DNA of 64,000 nt from Pedobacter sp. (GTDB lineage: Bacteria; Desulfobacterota; Desulfuromonadia; Desulfuromonadales; Syntrophotaleaceae): assembly GCA_050253415.1 (NCBI GenBank), contig JBFWJC010000002.1, positions 640,725 through 704,724 of the forward strand, in the 5' to 3' direction. This document shows, one piece after another, positions 39,001-48,000 of this stretch. A program made the position numbers. Position 1 is the stretch's first letter. Each line of letters opens with the position of its first letter.

Positions 39001-42000
39001 AAGGGAACGAGGGGGCTTGCCCCATTCAACACGTCCCCACATGTACATAGGTTTACTGTATTCGGGTTTATCCTTATTGATGTCGTAGACCATGAGAATT
39101 GGTATTGTCCGGGGACGTTGTTTATTAGTCAACTAGATAGTGTAATAGACAAATAAACAACGTCCCCAAGGACCCCAAATGGGATAAAAACAGCCCTTTA
39201 TTTTAATGATTCAGATAGTTGTCTTGGCCCGTCCCCATCCACGACGGCTTCTCCTTTTGTCAGAGCTTTCTTGAAATCAGAATCCTCAACCAGAGCATTG
39301 ATGAATTCTCTGACAATAAACGGATAGTTATCGCGAGCTCGCGGGATGGCAATAGCCCCGACAAAATTGGATTCCCATTCATGGGTCGCGGTCAGGACCT
39401 TATCGTAGACGATTTCCCCCTTCTCCTTGATGACGAGATTGGCAGAGATATGTCCGCTGGCAGTTACGAACGCTGTGTCGATGTCATTTTCCATGAGTAC
39501 ACCGGAAATGATGCATGTTGCATCGTCGGCAAGCAACCCGGCCTTGTAAAGTTCTTCTTCAAGTGCAAACTTCAGGTACGATCCGAAAGAATCATTAACG
39601 GATGACTTGAGTGGGTTGCCGCGGACACTGATCAGGTTCAGGTTACTGCCTGAGACAGAAAAATCACCAAGGGCCACTTTTTTGTAATGACCCTTTTGCA
39701 GAGGCTCGTAATTATTGATAGACGCTTCATAGGGGGGAGTCCGCATTGTCATACATCCGGTCGCCAGCAAGGAAAACAACAGAGCCATAAAGAGCTTAAA
39801 AAGTTTCACAAGAGATCCTCAAGTGTATAGTTAATGATTAGCTACTGGATTACAAACCATCTTACAAATATAAGGCTGCAACCTCGATCGTATATTTATC
39901 GTTGGAATCATTACTTCCTTTTTGTAGCTTGCGCATAGTCTCCTTGATAAACTCCAGAGCTTCCGGTGTCCCTAAATCACCAATGGATTTCAACGCCATA
40001 TTTTTTTCCTGCCAAGGGGACGTTTGGTAAACCCCCTTGAGATAATCGAACTGCTCGATCGCGCCAATGGTGCCCAGGGAGGACAATGCCGCAATCCTAA
40101 CAACATCCTTCTCATGCTTAGTTAATTCGATCAGGTAAGGTATGGCGTGCTGGTTATTGCTGTATCCAAGTTTATAAACCTCAAGGTAACTCAACTCCGT
40201 AAAGTTATTTTTGATCCCATTCGCGATAGCATCAACATCAGCGTCGGAAATGTGGTAGTTCACAGTAAGCCGATTAATTTTGCTGGCAAATTCTTTAATG
40301 GCAAGGTCGATCGGGATGTTGTAACAGGGCTCGATAACTTCATTGAAACTCCAGACTGGAACTTTCCCGTTCTTGAAATAGGCGGTCACTCGGCTGATTC
40401 TCCCTTCCGCTACAACATCGGCGCTGATGGTCGTGAAGGTGAAGTAGGGCGAAAATCCGGAAGTCCGGTGGTTCCTGATCTGAAATTTATGCAGCTTTAC
40501 CATAACGCCTTCGCCAGTTTGACCGGCAAAGCTCACATTGGCCCCCCTCGCCTTAAGTTCTTTTGCAACATTTTTTTCAAGAAATGCTACCGGATCAATC
40601 GGTTGGCCCTCGTTTGCGAGAGTTGCCGGCAAAACGCCGACATGAAAATTCTGGTCGGCGGCCCGGCGTTCGTCAATGACATGGATTGATAGCTGATCGC
40701 TTTTGGCGTCAGTAAAACCTAAGGTAGAGGGGGTCGGCGTGGCCACTTTATAGTTAGCAGGTGCACAACCAATAGTCAGAGCAAGGGCGAAAATAATTCC
40801 TGCAAAAATAAGCGTTCGCAAGGTTCTGTACATTTAATCCTCCTTAAATGATGCATTGATCCCAGCAGGGATATTTAAAAAAAGATAAGGGGTTGTCTGG
40901 GGATGTTGTTTGTTAGTCAATAGATAGTGTAATGGACAAATAAATGACGTTCCTGGGCACTTTCTCAACCCAGAACAAAGAAAAGCCGCCCACCGGACTA
41001 TCTCCGGTCAAGCGACTCCAACCCATTAACCCTGAGCGACCCACCAACAGCATGTTCCCTCCAGCATTCAAAACAAACAGGGCTTTAATAAATACCCTCA
41101 AACATTAGTGTTTGTCAAACTTTCTAATGTGAAATATCCCCATGACCTATCGATAGAGCTACTGTCTTCAACGCCGTTCACTGAGAAACATCAGCCAATT
41201 AAATAGAACCTCGCCGATCTCGATACCTCGTTGCCCAAACCTTCCACGCTGCTAAACTAATAAGAAATCACACGGAGTCTGTAACGTCTTGTTGATATTG
41301 GAGGGAAATGTGATCCAACCTCAAAACGTCAAGCAGGTTTTATCCCGCCATTTGCTGACCGAGGGTTTCGACATCATCCTTGATCTGGACCGTTCGCAGG
41401 GCAGTTGGTTCGTGGATGAGCGCACCGGCGAGCGTTATCTCGATTTTTTCTCCATGTACGCGTCGATGGCGGTGGGCTACAACCATCCGCGCTTGTTGCA
41501 GGTGCGTGACCAACTGGGACAACTGGCGGTTAACAAGCCTTCCAATTCCGATGTCTATACCACCGCCATGGCGGAATTCGTCGATACCTTTGAGCGTATC
41601 GCCATGCCGCCGGAGATGCCGCATGTGTTCTTTATCGAAGGCGGTGCGCTGGCGGTGGAGAACGCCCTGAAGACCGCTTTTGACTGGAAGGTGCGCAAAA
41701 ACCTGGCCGCGCAACCGGGCAACGATGCCGGCAGTCAGGTGATCCACTTCCGTCAGGCGTTTCACGGTCGCTCCGGTTATACCCTGTCGCTGACCAACAC
41801 CTTCGATCCGCGCAAGACGAGGTTTTTCCCGAAATTCGACTGGCCGCGCATTATCAATCCCAAGCTTACTTTTCCCCTCGATGCCGAGAATCTGGTGCAG
41901 GTCCGTATTCTTGAAAACGAGGCCCTCGGGTCCATCAACCAGGTCCTCGAGGAGCAGGGCGAGGATATTGCGGCGCTGATTATCGAACCGATCCAGGGGG

Positions 42001-45000: not shown

Positions 45001-48000
45001 GACCATCATACCTTTCGCAGTTCGCGACGGCACTTTGCCCGCTTGGTCAAGCTGTTCTCCCGCCTCGGGTTTGTGGCGCGGGAGCGATTCTATGCCGGTG
45101 AACAGGCTGGCTGGGGGGCACAGGTCATGGAGAATCGCATCGCCGGCTTGAGCCTGTTTCTCGATGTTGATCTGGCACCGGAGGAAGTGGAGACCGATTT
45201 TTCCCGCGAGGAGTTGCCGGAGCGGGAAACCCTCGGCACCGTGGGGTTGTGGTGCGCCTTGCACGGCGACTCGATCTTCGCCGGGGGGATGCACCATCTT
45301 GCAGCGCGCTGCGATTTCGAGCGCCTTGTCTCCGACCTGGCCCGGTTTGGTGTTAAGTTCATGGCACCTTTCAGCGATTTTCCCTGGCTCAAACAGGCTT
45401 TCAGCGTTGGCGAGCGGTGGCCGGTTGATGCGGGTCGGTTGGAGATGCTGGTTATGAAAAAGCTGCTGAGTCGTGAACAGGCGGATAAATTTCTGGCTGA
45501 GGGCGCTATCGGCAGTCATCTTGAAAATATCCAGCGCGATGAAGGCTATAAAGGCTTCAACAAAAACAACGTCAGCGCTATTATCCGCAAGACCGACCCG
45601 CGCCTGTGACCGGGCGGGTGGGATGTTTTTCGGCAAGACCAAACCCGTGGGTTATGCTATGGTTTGGCTTGGTCAAGCCTTTGAATTTGTTGTTATTAAA
45701 ATCACAAGTGATCGTTATTGCAAAATTCTAAACCACATTCTCAAAGGCTTATTTAGCCGCAGATACACGCAGATGAACACCGATAAAAGCTTTCAGACCT
45801 TGCAAGCAAAAAAAGTTTGTATTTATCTGCGTCAATCTGCGGCCAAGTGAAGGTTTTTATTGCAGGATCTAAGTGCAATCCAGGTATCCTGATTAATAAC
45901 TTCTACCCCACCCCTAACCAAAGATAATCGTCCCGCCATGCAAGAAATCATCAAAATCGCTGAAGATGCGGCCCGCCAAGCCGGGGCCTATATTATCGAA
46001 GCCATGTCCGGTTTGCGCCAGGTTGATTACAAGGGGCGCGTTGACATGGTGACCAACGTTGATCGCGGCTCGGAAGCCATCATCCTCGAGTGCATCCGAC
46101 GGACTTACCCTGAACATGCTATTCTGGCCGAGGAAACCGGCGACAATCAGCTGAGCAGCGATTGGCGCTGGGTGATCGATCCTATCGACGGCACCACCAA
46201 CTTCGTACACGGCTACCCGTTCTTTTGTGTGTCCATTGCTGTGCAGTTCCGGCAGCAGACGGTCGCTGCGGTGGTGTTTGATCCGATGCATGATGAAATG
46301 TTTTCCGCTTTGCTCGGCCAGGGCGCGTTTCTCAACGGCGCGCCTTTGCGGGTTTCCCAGACCACGGAACTGTCCAAATCGTTGCTGGCGACAGGTTTTC
46401 CCTACGATCTGGGTGACCGCTGGCATCGCTCCATGGATTATTTCAAACTGTTTTATTATCAGACCCACGGGGTGCGGCGCGATGGCGCGGCGGCGCTGGA
46501 TCTGTGTTACGTTGCGGCGGGCCGTTTTGATGGTTTTTGGGAATACGACCTGAAACCCTGGGATGTGGCTGCCGGTCTGTTGCTGGTGACCGAAGCCGGC
46601 GGCAAAGTCACCGATTTTAAGGGCAACCCCAGTGCTCTTGGCGATGGCCAGTTGGTGGCCAGCAACGGTGGCCTGCACGATCGCATGCTCGAAGTGCTTG
46701 GCTCTTTACCTGCTGTGCAGGTTTGAATTTAGAAACTTATCGGAGGATTTATGACCAGCCCGCAAATGATTTACCTGCTTTCCGATGCGACCGGCGAGAC
46801 TGCTGAGAAGATCGTGAACGCGGTTTTGACCCAGTTCCGGGATAAGCCGGTACGTATGCGGCGCATCAGCAACGTGCGTAACGAGACTACCGTGAAGCAA
46901 GGCCTCGAAGAGATCATGAAGAACCCGGGGATGGTGGTCTATACCATCGTCAACCGGGATCTTGCGCAATATATTCAGAACGAATGCGAGGAGAGGGGAC
47001 TGATGGCCTTTGACCTGGTGACGCCGCTGCTTTCCCAGTTCTCCAAATTTTTCGGGCGCTTGCCTGGGCAAACTCCGGGATTGTTACACGAGATGGATGA
47101 GGAATACTTTCGTCGCATCGAAGCTGTGGAGTTTACCGTCAAGCATGACGACGGCCAGGAAGTGCGTCACCTGACGCATGCGGATATTGTGCTGGTCGGG
47201 GTTTCCCGTACAAGCAAGACCCCCCTGTCCACTTACCTGGCCCATCTTGGCTGGAAGGTCGCCAACGTGCCGCTGGTGCTTGGGATCGATCCCCCCAAGG
47301 AACTGTTTCAGGTCGATCCCAGGCGGGTTGCGGCGCTGTATATCGATCCGCAGCGTCTGGTGGAGTTACGTTCGGCACGGCTCAAAAATCTCGGTCAGGA
47401 CCCGCGAGGAGCCTACGCCGGGATCGAAGAGATCGAGGAAGAACTGCGCTATGCCAAGGTGCTTTATCGTCGCAATGGTTGGACGACGATCAATGTTTCG
47501 GGCAAGGCGGTAGAGGAAACGGCCCATGAGGTGCTGGTCAAATTGAAAATGAAATGAGGTGGTTTGTCCGCGACAAACCACCTCATCGTCATGCCTCTCA
47601 GTGAGTTTTGGATAGCTGGTCCTCGGCTGTTATGAGCGCGTCGGCCTCTTTTTTTAACCGGTCGGCCAAGGTTCCAACCGCCAGGGCGAAAGATGTCGAT
47701 CGGTTCCAGCGCATCAACGTGCGGAAGTTGCCGGTAACCAGAAACGCCTGTCCATCGGGACCGTCGGGCAGGATCAGCGAGGCGTTCAGGTCATCCGCTC
47801 CGCCGGATACCGGTATTCCCAACTCGCGCCAGTCCCGCAAGGTTTTTTTGATTTTTGAATCGGCCAGGGACCGGTCGAAGCCTTCGGGGAGCACGACCAG
47901 CCAGCCCCATTTCTGATCTTTTGTCCATCCTGCACGGGCCAGGTAGCTGGCGGCCGAGGCCACCGCGTCTTCCACATCCGTCCAGATATTGCGATGTCCG

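Follow-up and report, generated by a model that had tools for sequence, protein, structure and literature searches.

We propose that the protein designated P0001 (the target) is probably an HglS-like Fe(II) enzyme that converts 2-oxoadipate to D-2-hydroxyglutarate within the lysine route of its operon. Its family, we suggest, sits among the VOC intramolecular 2-oxoacid dioxygenases, beside HPPD, hydroxymandelate synthase (HMS) and hydroxyglutarate synthase (HglS); if true, the 2-oxoadipate to D-2-hydroxyglutarate step would have a second, large family that has been overlooked. In the window (the whole stretch of DNA that was analysed, 64,000 nucleotides), the + strand carries three translationally coupled genes, encoding a lysine transaminase, an FAD oxidase and the target in that order, and re-checking confirmed the genes and coordinates that an earlier note had given for them. 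The operon is laid out as follows:

40834..41309, + strand: intergenic region 5' of the operon, presumed to bear the promoter; the gene before it runs on the opposite strand
41310..42671, + strand: L-lysine 6-transaminase (LAT); TIGR03251 766.9 bits, cut-off 520.8; PF00202 E 2.7e-91
42668..44266, + strand: FAD-linked D-2-hydroxyacid dehydrogenase of the GlcD/YdiJ type (the FAD oxidase), 532 aa; PF01565 and PF02913
44260..45609, + strand: target P0001, 449 aa, two-module VOC-fold protein, proposed HglS-like 2-oxoadipate dioxygenase/decarboxylase
45601..45620, + strand: terminator-like hairpin with a T-run at the operon end, a weak site

The LAT gene starts at a GTG (41310) preceded by GGAGGG and stops at a TGA (42671); its product transfers the amino group of lysine to 2-oxoglutarate, giving allysine/piperideine-6-carboxylate and glutamate. 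The ATG of the oxidase gene (42668) overlaps the LAT stop by 4 nt, and the ATG of the target gene (44260), with AAGGGAGG upstream, overlaps the oxidase stop (TAG, 44266) by 7 nt; the target gene ends at a TGA (45609). An Rfam search of 40500-46200 gave no match at E<=1, riboswitches included, and a simple scan of 40834..41309 found no sigma-70-like site. The best NCBIfam match of the FAD oxidase is YdiJ (NF049975), over positions 40-541 of 1018 with 209 bits, below the cut-off of 1350, and the protein corresponds to the N-terminal half of YdiJ without the Fe-S half. We propose that it is a D-2-hydroxyglutarate dehydrogenase.

The target belongs to a large family that has no name in any database. 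As described before, 6178 relatives were found, out of 8000 candidates that were scored; the 120 listed are all devoid of Pfam domains, and some, here 3 of the 120, bear a JGI HPPD-like name. The closest named relative among the matches listed is Pcar_2440 of Syntrophotalea carbinolica, with 87% identity. Searches with the target returned PF00903 alone from Pfam (E 0.19, below its cut-off), no NCBIfam family and no PDB chain at E<=10, which bears out the earlier statement that it has no sequence match in these databases. Kinship to DUF1338 gave no significant match by Pfam, NCBIfam, PDB phmmer or PDB profile search, and hhalign of the family against a four-sequence DUF1338 profile gave a probability of 0.3%.

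The AF2 model of the target, built on a 76-sequence alignment, has a pLDDT of 95.4 and a pTM of 0.94. When it was compared with 48,161 chains by VIA-align, the top three matches were DUF1338 proteins, including rice HglS with bound 2-oxoadipate (Z 16.6-16.9), at Z about 16-17. The DUF1338-like fold reported from an earlier model is thus upheld and strengthened (pLDDT from 68 to 95.4, Z from 7-9 to 16-17). The target is divided as follows:

44407..44724, + strand: N-terminal VOC-like module, residues 50-155, for which no metal site is proposed (VIA-align and model strands)
44863..45606, + strand: catalytic VOC domain like DUF1338/HglS, residues 202-449 (6w1k Z 16.9)
45004..45018, + strand: H249-x3-R253 in strand 247-253; H249 is the candidate first metal ligand and R253 the candidate distal-carboxylate Arg (H249 in 69/76 members, R253 in 69/76)
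45295..45297, + strand: H346 at the start of strand 346-350, proposed second metal ligand (kept in 66/76)
45388..45396, + strand: L377-x-Q379, likened to the DUF1338 Leu-x-Gln (L377 in 72/76, Q379 in 64/76)
45523..45537, + strand: E422-x3-R426 in strand 416-426, with E422 as the candidate third metal ligand (E422 in 66/76, R426 in 72/76)

The catalytic domain aligned with rice HglS (6w1k) over 209 aa at an rmsd of 3.1, followed by 3iuz (Z 16.2), 3lho (15.7), P. putida HglS (12.6) and YdcJ (12.2). HMS and HPPD matched residues 202-449 at Z 13.8 and 12.6 (range 12-14), ordinary glyoxalases at Z <=9. Judged from the model, the catalytic domain is structurally closest to the DUF1338 hydroxyglutarate synthases, and almost equally close to HMS/HPPD as to Pseudomonas putida HglS. 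The best Foldseek matches were HPPD and HMS (E 3e-10). The N-terminal module has strands at 52-58, 73-84, 92-110 and 134-152 in the model, and small glyoxalase-family proteins match residues 42-155 at Z 7.0-7.3 by VIA-align.

The best-conserved motifs of the family, His-x3-Arg, His, Leu-x-Gln and Glu-x3-Arg, follow the order of the DUF1338 active site, and the His, Arg, His and Glu are similarly spaced. From the order of the motifs, their position on the strands and an hhalign path that is not significant, H249/R253 would correspond to H70/R74 of P. putida HglS, H346 to H226, and E422 to E294. That path pairs H249/R253 with the invariant DUF1338 His/Arg, H346 with the invariant Asn-His, and L377-x-Q379 with L262 and Q264, which are invariant in the four-sequence alignment; it left unpaired E422-x3-R426, which has the form and order of the invariant DUF1338 Glu-x3-Arg. 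All four residues H249, R253, H346 and E422 occur together in 61 of 76 diverse family members; at least one is missing in the other 15, the full His/His/Glu triad is missing in about 12 distant members, and Asp replaces R253 in three, so the family is not uniform. S255, R256, D304 and E309 are more conserved than the proposed triad and are kept even in members that lack it. The paper of Thompson et al. (PMC7286885) presents an HHE triad plus Arg as a predictor of 2-oxoadipate use, names R74 of P. putida HglS, and describes the HglS Arg as the hallmark residue that binds the distal carboxylate and sets specificity for 2-oxoadipate.

We infer the metal, substrate, product, stereochemistry and O2 use of the target as follows. 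Fe(II) would be bound by the C-terminal domain through H249, H346 and E422, and 2-oxoadipate would place its 2-oxo-carboxylate on the metal and its distal carboxylate on R253; reaction with O2 would then decarboxylate and hydroxylate it to D-2-hydroxyglutarate. LAT would open the route from lysine to piperideine-6-carboxylate, unlinked genes in the host genome would supply the middle steps through 2-aminoadipate to 2-oxoadipate, and the FAD enzyme would close it by converting D-2-hydroxyglutarate to 2-oxoglutarate.

Gene context is the strongest new evidence for the link to lysine. Among 160 loci of target relatives (80 genome and 80 metagenome), the commonest neighbour was L-piperideine-6-carboxylate dehydrogenase (P6CDH; NF050084 795 bits, cut-off 730), found in 31. 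LAT was nearby in 17 loci and a lysine-6-dehydrogenase/saccharopine-dehydrogenase-like gene in 15; the FAD oxidase accompanied the family in 12 (7/80 genome, 5/80 metagenome). The earlier figure for the oxidase, 25 of 80 loci with 17 directly upstream, was not reproduced, and the two locus sets may differ; the gene often seen immediately beside the family is P6CDH, an aldehyde dehydrogenase. Of the 160 loci, 46 had at least one of the four partners and 114 had none; among the 72 loci flanked by 3 kb or more on each side, 31 had at least one. In three genomes of the host's order P6CDH, LAT, FAD oxidase and target stand in one row, and a fourth has P6CDH, LAT and target. Eight close-clade loci (at least 57% identity) extend far enough upstream to be judged: seven have the FAD oxidase directly upstream, and the eighth has it 1.3 kb away on that side. 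Family members from other phyla adjoin P6CDH together with either LAT or the lysine-6-dehydrogenase-like gene. The oxidase pairing recurs independently in Micrarchaeota, where an oxidase of a different GlcD-like subfamily adjoins the target relative in 4 of 4 loci.

Across genomes, LAT was found in all nine family carriers among 41 relatives versus 3 of 32 non-carriers. P6CDH was found in 7 genomes of a 201-genome sample: all five family carriers, one of three canonical-HGLS genomes, and one with neither. Outside the host's order 11 of 14 carriers had P6CDH above the cut-off, three of these 11 without a partner in the fetched flanks. Canonical HglS (PF07063) was not found in the host genome, in any of the 201 genomes of the phylum sample or in any of 10 other carriers. 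The host genome has no equivalog-level P6CDH (best aldehyde dehydrogenase 386 bits versus 730), nor does its genus, and no 2-aminoadipate transaminase above the NF049976 cut-off (best 234 bits versus 650); a transaminase gene of this kind was linked to the family in none of the loci examined. The caveat that the operon has no dedicated gene for P6C oxidation or aminoadipate transamination holds genome-wide. Taken together, fold, motif order, lysine-gene context, the recurring oxidase pairing and the failure to find PF07063 support the lysine to 2-oxoglutarate route with a divergent HglS that had been put forward earlier.

The target could instead share the fold, the Fe(II)/O2 chemistry and the lysine pathway and act on another substrate or make another product (for example another dicarboxylic 2-oxoacid such as 2-oxopimelate as substrate, or glutarate, L-2-hydroxyglutarate or a hydroxyadipate-type product that is then FAD-oxidised), which we consider unlikely. 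Identity over the structural alignments is 19-20% to HMS/HPPD versus 11-16% to the HglS proteins, so another 2-oxoacid substrate is possible, and the alignments to HMS/HPPD are as close as that to P. putida HglS. The three members with Asp for R253 point the same way, as does the similar level at which the FAD oxidase matches glycolate oxidase, D-lactate dehydrogenase and D-2-hydroxyglutarate dehydrogenase in the PDB (E 6e-40 to 1.5e-31). However, YdiJ is its best NCBIfam model, LAT, the lysine-6-dehydrogenase-like gene and P6CDH all lead to 2-aminoadipate, the amino acid that corresponds to 2-oxoadipate, and R253 stands at the position of the specificity Arg described in PMC7286885.

The host's relatives are anaerobes, whereas the proposed reaction needs O2. 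An O2-independent VOC isomerase, epimerase or lyase acting on allysine/piperideine-6-carboxylate, 2-aminoadipate or a CoA ester would suit anaerobic hosts. Glyoxalase I and methylmalonyl-CoA epimerase share the VOC fold (Z 8-9), the most conserved residues (S255, R256, D304 and E309) lie outside the proposed triad, and the carriers include the anaerobe-associated Desulfuromonadales, Brocadiales and Anaerolineae. Most carriers, however, belong to lineages rich in aerobes (Verrucomicrobiota, Planctomycetota and Acidobacteriota), every top structural match is a 2-oxoacid dioxygenase, with the non-oxygenase VOC proteins scoring far lower, the pattern of His/His/Glu plus Arg agrees with HglS, and a D-2-hydroxyacid dehydrogenase partner fits a hydroxy-acid product. 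The host genome also encodes two terminal oxidases, cytochrome bd (subunit I, 598 bits) and a haem-copper oxidase (COX1, subunit I, 511 bits), so the objection from oxygen raised earlier is weakened; from these genes, O2 would be within reach of the host. The closest named relative of the target comes from S. carbinolica, but in view of the two oxidases the description of the host as a strict anaerobe has to be tempered. It appears improbable that the target works without O2.

That the target acts on aromatic 2-oxoacids in the manner of HPPD or HMS, with the lysine context coincidental, is very improbable: the Foldseek matches, the two-module architecture and the JGI name would fit, but the global TM-score to HPPD is 0.24-0.30, no tyrosine-catabolism neighbour recurs in the 160 loci while several deep clades repeatedly show lysine genes, and the distal-carboxylate Arg is an HglS hallmark (PMC7286885). 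A non-catalytic binding, regulatory or scaffold partner of the FAD oxidase, as the coupled genes and the 15 members with incomplete residues might suggest, is hardly credible with all four residues in 61 of 76 members and most loci carrying the target relative without an oxidase.

The closest known counterpart of the proposed 2-oxoadipate enzyme is HglS/DUF1338 (PF07063: P. putida PP_5260, rice FLO7 and E. coli YdcJ). Both have the VOC barrel in the catalytic domain (Z 12-17) and the same motif order. Unlike HglS, the target carries about 200 aa more at its N-terminus, a VOC module plus a helical linker, and its invariant residues also include S255, R256, D304 and E309; the long helical insertions seen in the 450-aa bacterial HglS are missing from it. 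Sequence similarity is undetectable, and the family occurs in genomes without detected PF07063. HPPD has a similar Glu-containing motif near its C-terminus. HPPD and HMS are likewise built of two VOC modules, of which the C-terminal one is catalytic (VIA Z 12.4-13.8), but the orientation of the modules differs from that in the target (rmsd about 20 A overall), the Arg four residues past the first His is shared with HglS instead, and the genes around the target point to lysine, not tyrosine. Further comparators are the D-lysine/2-aminoadipate route of P. putida (AmaB, PP_4108, HglS and YdiJ) and the LAT-AmaB route of other bacteria. Unlike in P. putida, a PP_4108-type transaminase is unlinked in the target loci, the oxidase lacks the Fe-S half of YdiJ, and the host genome has no gene dedicated to the AmaB step. 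According to a preprint (bioRxiv 10.1101/450254), P. putida pairs HglS with a YdiJ-type D-2-hydroxyglutarate dehydrogenase; both families share a lysine-catabolism context and a GlcD/YdiJ-type partner. Like these routes, the loci of target relatives cluster LAT, P6CDH (the AmaB equivalog), the HglS-like protein and a YdiJ-like oxidase.

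The target, an unnamed protein of 449 amino acids, is encoded by the last of three plus-strand genes that follow one another without gaps.

Genes and features of the operon
41310-42671, plus strand: L-lysine 6-transaminase (LAT); GTG start preceded by GGAGGG, TGA stop
42668-44266, plus strand: FAD-linked oxidase of 532 amino acids; ATG to TAG, 4-nt overlap with the LAT stop
44260-45609, plus strand: target, 449 amino acids; ATG preceded by AAGGGAGG, 7-nt overlap with the oxidase
45601-45620, plus strand: weak hairpin and T-run 3' of the target

With its upstream neighbours encoded on the opposite strand, and with inositol monophosphatase, the PEP synthase regulator and PEP synthase encoded downstream, the operon is a three-gene unit. 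An Rfam search of 40500-46200 returned no riboswitch or other RNA, and thus no lysine riboswitch there. The GC content of the operon (0.58-0.62, against 0.53 for the genome) differs too little to argue for a recent transfer. The region just upstream, 38940-41309, is low in GC (0.45 against the genome's 0.53) and contains two minus-strand lipoprotein-like genes, one with HEAT repeats and one without a Pfam match. Two other minus-strand ORFs, 34709-35794 (361 amino acids) and 36779-37924 (381 amino acids), have no Pfam family at all, and the product of the former has membrane-like stretches and a run of Cys-x2-Cys pairs at its C-terminus.

LAT scored 766.9 bits on the equivalog TIGR03251 (cut-off 520.8) and is therefore a member of it. 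The FAD oxidase has the domains FAD_binding_4 and FAD-oxidase_C, and among the NCBIfam models it fits YdiJ best, over the N-terminal half (NF049975, positions 40-541 of 1018); with 209 bits against a cut-off of 1350, it does not match YdiJ over the full length that includes the C-terminal Fe-S half. The related proteins of solved structure are glycolate oxidase, D-lactate dehydrogenase and D-2-hydroxyglutarate dehydrogenase. Judged by sequence, the FAD oxidase is a predicted D-2-hydroxyacid dehydrogenase, the exact substrate of which is beyond the reach of such data.

For the target itself, the sequence searches gave nothing significant, as the earlier note had claimed for Pfam, NCBIfam and the PDB. 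The only Pfam match was PF00903 at E 0.19, below the cut-off (E 0.07 for the C-terminal half alone). PF07063, the model of the DUF1338 proteins to which hydroxyglutarate synthase (HglS) belongs, matched neither the whole target at E<=1 nor residues 201-449 alone at E<=10; NCBIfam returned 0 families and the PDB sequences no chain at E<=10. A profile of 76 family members found nothing significant in the PDB (4-hydroxyphenylpyruvate dioxygenase, HPPD, at E 0.5), and none of the 76 members matched any Pfam family significantly or PF07063 at all. Comparison of the family with DUF1338 by hhalign gave a probability of 0.3%, with a DUF1338 profile of only four sequences (two in a second run); the sole stretch aligned in the first run, residues 389-416 against a DUF1338 helix, was discarded because its position breaks the order of the other motifs. 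In the protein atlas, only the target's own unnamed clusters came up, and no structure of it.

The family is as large and as nameless as that note had it, with 708 representatives at 50% identity (E<=1e-3) and, when 8000 candidates were scored, at least 6178 clusters at 90% identity. None of the 120 matches listed has a Pfam domain, and all are called 'hypothetical' except three that JGI names 'HPPD-like putative hemolysin'; among them, Syntrophotalea carbinolica Pcar_2440 is the closest relative with a name, at 87% identity. Within the genome collection, the family is carried chiefly by Verrucomicrobiota, with others in Planctomycetota, Acidobacteriota, Chlamydiales, Anaerolineae, Brocadiales, Micrarchaeota and Desulfuromonadales. 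In the literature searched, which leaves out most subscription journals, neither the family nor Pcar_2438-2440 is described.

An AF2 model of the target built on the 76-sequence alignment reached a pLDDT of 95.4 and a pTM of 0.94, the C-terminal third, poorly modelled when the earlier note was written, included. Comparison with 48,161 representative chains by VIA-align placed DUF1338 proteins at ranks 1-3: rice hydroxyglutarate synthase with 2-oxoadipate (6w1k; Z 16.6, 208 residues aligned at an rmsd of 3.2 over model residues 202-449), 3iuz (Z 16.2) and 3lho (Z 15.7). Hydroxymandelate synthase (HMS; 2r5v, Z 12.9), YdcJ (2rjb, Z 12.0) and HPPD (8xtv, Z 9.8) followed, with small glyoxalases and methylmalonyl-CoA epimerases at Z 9 or less. 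A second look over Foldseek's best 1000 chains gave Z 16.9 for 6w1k, 13.8 for HMS, 12.6 for human HPPD, and 12.6 and 12.3 for P. putida HglS. The barrel of the VOC superfamily, which has seven or eight strands in the DUF1338 structures 6W1K, 6W1G, 2RJB, 3IUZ and 3LHO, was recovered against each of them (Z 16.9, 12.6, 12.2, 16.2 and 15.7, respectively; 195-214 residues aligned, rmsd 3.0-4.1). The claim that the fold is closest to DUF1338 proteins including HglS is thus upheld by the three top chains at Z 15.7-16.9. Foldseek itself ranked HPPD and HMS first (E 3e-10), yet at a TM of only 0.24-0.30. Because residues 50-155 also resemble small VOC proteins (Z about 7), the model describes the target as two VOC modules, of which the C-terminal one would be catalytic.

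To look for an active site, we aligned four diverse DUF1338 proteins: YdcJ of E. coli and three others, taken from genomes in which PF07063 had been found. Invariant in these four (E. coli numbering) are His68, Arg72, Asn223-His224, Leu262, Gln264, Glu290, Arg294 and Ser392, and alignment of YdcJ to the solved P. putida HglS gave H70, R74, H226, E294 and S403 as equivalents. According to Thompson et al. (PMC7286885), R74 of HglS binds the distal carboxylate of 2-oxoadipate and sets the specificity for it, V402 and S403 are further contacts, and the metal site is an HHE triad; the residue numbers given here for the triad were read off our alignment and not taken from the paper. The target shows the DUF1338 motifs in the same order and at similar spacing.

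Motif residues of the target, with the number of the 76 family members that keep them and the strand in the AF2 model
H249: 69/76, strand 247-253
R253: 69/76, strand 247-253
H346: 66/76, strand 346-350
L377 and Q379: 72/76 and 64/76, strand 377-382
E422: 66/76, strand 416-426
R426: 72/76, strand 416-426
V438 and S439: 48/76 and 49/76

H249, H346 and E422 lie on strands in the order of H68, H224 and E290 of DUF1338 (E. coli numbering), and R253 stands four residues past H249, as R74 does past H70 in HglS; H249, R253, H346 and E422 are all kept in 61 of the 76 members. When the C-terminal domain was compared by hhalign with a pair of short DUF1338 proteins, the alignment, at 0.3% not significant, matched H249/R253, H346 and L377/Q379 to their DUF1338 counterparts and misplaced the Glu motif of the target. 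We infer the residue mapping between the target and DUF1338 from the motif order and this non-significant hhalign path, not from superposed coordinates. S255, R256, D304 and E309 are kept better than the proposed triad residues, and the triad is absent from about a dozen distant members. Such members, P0101, P0105, P0113, P0115 and P0124 among them, retain S255, R256, D304 and E309; the members without the triad are either non-catalytic paralogues, or the four residues mark another function. Three further members (P0071, P0082 and P0106) keep the His/His/Glu pattern with Asp in place of R253, and may form a sub-group whose substrate differs and could be basic.

Gene context links the family to lysine. 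In 160 fetched loci (80 from species genomes and 80 from metagenomes), neighbours were searched by tblastn with the LAT and oxidase of the operon and with two recurrent neighbours obtained from ORF clustering. The commonest neighbour (31 of the 160 loci) is an aldehyde dehydrogenase that scores 795 bits on NF050084, the equivalog of L-piperideine-6-carboxylate dehydrogenase (P6CDH; cut-off 730). LAT was found in 17 of the 160 loci, a protein of the saccharopine dehydrogenase fold in 15, and the FAD oxidase in 12, one of them distant. At least one of the four partners occurs in 46 of the 160 loci, or in 31 of the 72 that have 3 kb or more of flank on either side, and none in the other 114. Among proteins of solved structure, the best relative of the saccharopine-dehydrogenase-fold protein is Pyrococcus PH1688, which we take to be a lysine 6-dehydrogenase. 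Typically, the genes are arranged as LAT-P6CDH-target or as target-(lysine-dehydrogenase-like gene)-P6CDH. LAT and the lysine-dehydrogenase-like protein would be alternative ways from lysine to piperideine-6-carboxylate, which in both arrangements would be oxidised to 2-aminoadipate before the family protein acts.

In a FastTree phylogeny of 160 members, these arrangements occupy deep clades apart from one another. The context with the FAD oxidase occurs in the clade of the operon and again in an archaeal clade; the archaeal oxidase belongs to another subfamily, GlcD-like, and shares no more than 23-32% identity with that of the operon. The FAD-oxidase match in locus L075, counted among the 12, was rejected as linkage, being 5.3 kb off, on the opposite strand and 25% identical. 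A LAT link in Chlamydiales, obtained by single-linkage ORF clustering, was dropped because NCBIfam shows the neighbour to be HemL. In six loci of Verrucomicrobiota and Acidobacteriota (L021, L026, L028, L035, L049 and L074), two ABC-2 permease genes precede the family gene, a context that recurs there without lysine genes.

The loci of four close relatives with P6CDH over its cut-off were compared. In three of them (L181, L182 and L183), P6CDH, LAT, FAD oxidase and target stand in one row on one strand, and in a fourth (L184) the order is P6CDH-LAT-target, while the genus of the present genome has the shorter LAT-oxidase-target form. Of the steps in the proposed route, only the 2-aminoadipate transaminase is missing from the four-gene form. 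The oxidase and P6CDH take the same place in different operons, which suggested that the oxidase might substitute for P6CDH; this was rejected because L181-L183 have both. In the close clade (at least 57% identity), eight loci have sufficient upstream flank; the oxidase lies directly upstream of the target in seven of them and 1.3 kb upstream in the eighth.

Nine of the 41 genomes of the order, this one included, carry the family. LAT is present in 9/9 carriers and 3/32 non-carriers, counts that are descriptive only since kin are not independent; P6CDH exceeds its cut-off in 4 of the 8 carrier relatives. The three genomes with LAT and without the family are G414, G418 and G437, the absence in G414 being uncertain since 8000 of its bases are withheld. 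PF07063 was found neither in this genome (100% complete) nor in any of 201 genomes sampled from the phylum or of the 10 other carrier genomes. A second set of 201 genomes was the same for the phylum of G201 (a Verrucomicrobia MAG) and for that of G406 (an Acidobacteriota MAG by its title), and was therefore used as a background sample only. In it, five genomes carry the family, three others PF07063, and seven P6CDH; these seven are all five carriers, one PF07063 genome and one with neither. As the genes are adjacent or near in the five carriers, their co-occurrence repeats the synteny evidence. More independent evidence than synteny comes from four carriers without a partner in the fetched loci, three of which have P6CDH over its cut-off elsewhere in the genome and the fourth a contig-end fragment. 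Outside the order, P6CDH is present in 11 of 14 carriers, the Parachlamydiaceae and Micrarchaeota genomes being without it. One genome, G253, has adjacent LAT and P6CDH and neither this family nor PF07063; it may have a third solution for 2-oxoadipate, or an incomplete assembly.

In the present genome, the best aldehyde dehydrogenase scored 386 bits against the P6CDH cut-off of 730 and looks generic, and the best score on the 2-aminoadipate transaminase model was 234 bits, where 650 are needed. Since neither enzyme passes its cut-off, either piperideine-6-carboxylate oxidation and 2-aminoadipate transamination are left to less specific enzymes encoded away from the operon, or this genome lacks the complete route. 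It had also been objected that HglS needs O2, which this anaerobe avoids. Subunit I of cytochrome bd (598 bits) and subunit I of a haem-copper oxidase (511 bits) are both encoded in the genome; the organism is thus equipped to meet O2, the enzyme may use it, and the objection is weakened. Bearing on O2 handling as well, a 399-amino-acid protein at 29470-30669 on the plus strand has metallo-beta-lactamase (ODP) and flavodoxin domains, the usual architecture of flavodiiron O2/NO reductases.

Taken together, the results favour, with fair though not strong confidence, the view that the target family is a second, unnamed HglS-like family that converts 2-oxoadipate to D-2-hydroxyglutarate in an Fe(II)- and O2-dependent reaction. 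In the operon, the target would act between LAT and the proposed D-2-hydroxyglutarate dehydrogenase. To our knowledge, the conversion of 2-oxoadipate to 2-hydroxyglutarate was not discovered until 2019-2020 and is assigned to DUF1338 alone, so that lysine catabolism is scored as incomplete in genomes without DUF1338. The target family is common in soil and sediment phyla; a second hydroxyglutarate synthase would close the pathway gap in many uncultured lineages, would offer a new scaffold for the engineering of 2-oxoacid oxygenases, and would make one ask what use fermentative anaerobes have for a lysine route that depends on O2.

A bolder proposal, which we regard as improbable, is that in anaerobic hosts of the Desulfuromonadales type the protein is no ordinary aerobic catabolic oxygenase, and that either it converts 2-oxoadipate to 2-hydroxyglutarate by means of some oxidant besides free O2, or the operon is a microoxic, lysine-fuelled, O2-consuming module. 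Either way, the intramolecular 2-oxoacid dioxygenases would gain a fourth lineage in this family, with a structure intermediate between HPPD/HMS and DUF1338, and the family would carry most of the flux from lysine to 2-oxoglutarate in Verrucomicrobiota, Planctomycetota and Acidobacteriota.

Returning to the preferred reading of a second HglS-like family, the target shares the fold and motif pattern of DUF1338, and because it passes no sequence test for DUF1338 membership it is not filed there. With HPPD and HMS it has in common two VOC modules, a C-terminal module that would be catalytic and a proposed His/His/Glu site, and its C-terminal domain matches them at Z 12.4-13.8 in structure comparison; however, it does not pass the Glyoxalase/HPPD sequence model PF00903 (E 0.07-0.19). 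The catalytic module most resembles the short DUF1338 proteins. Where residues align, 11-16% are identical in comparisons with DUF1338 proteins and 19-20% in those with HMS and HPPD. On these grounds, the model suggests a place for the family between the known lineages, not within one of them.
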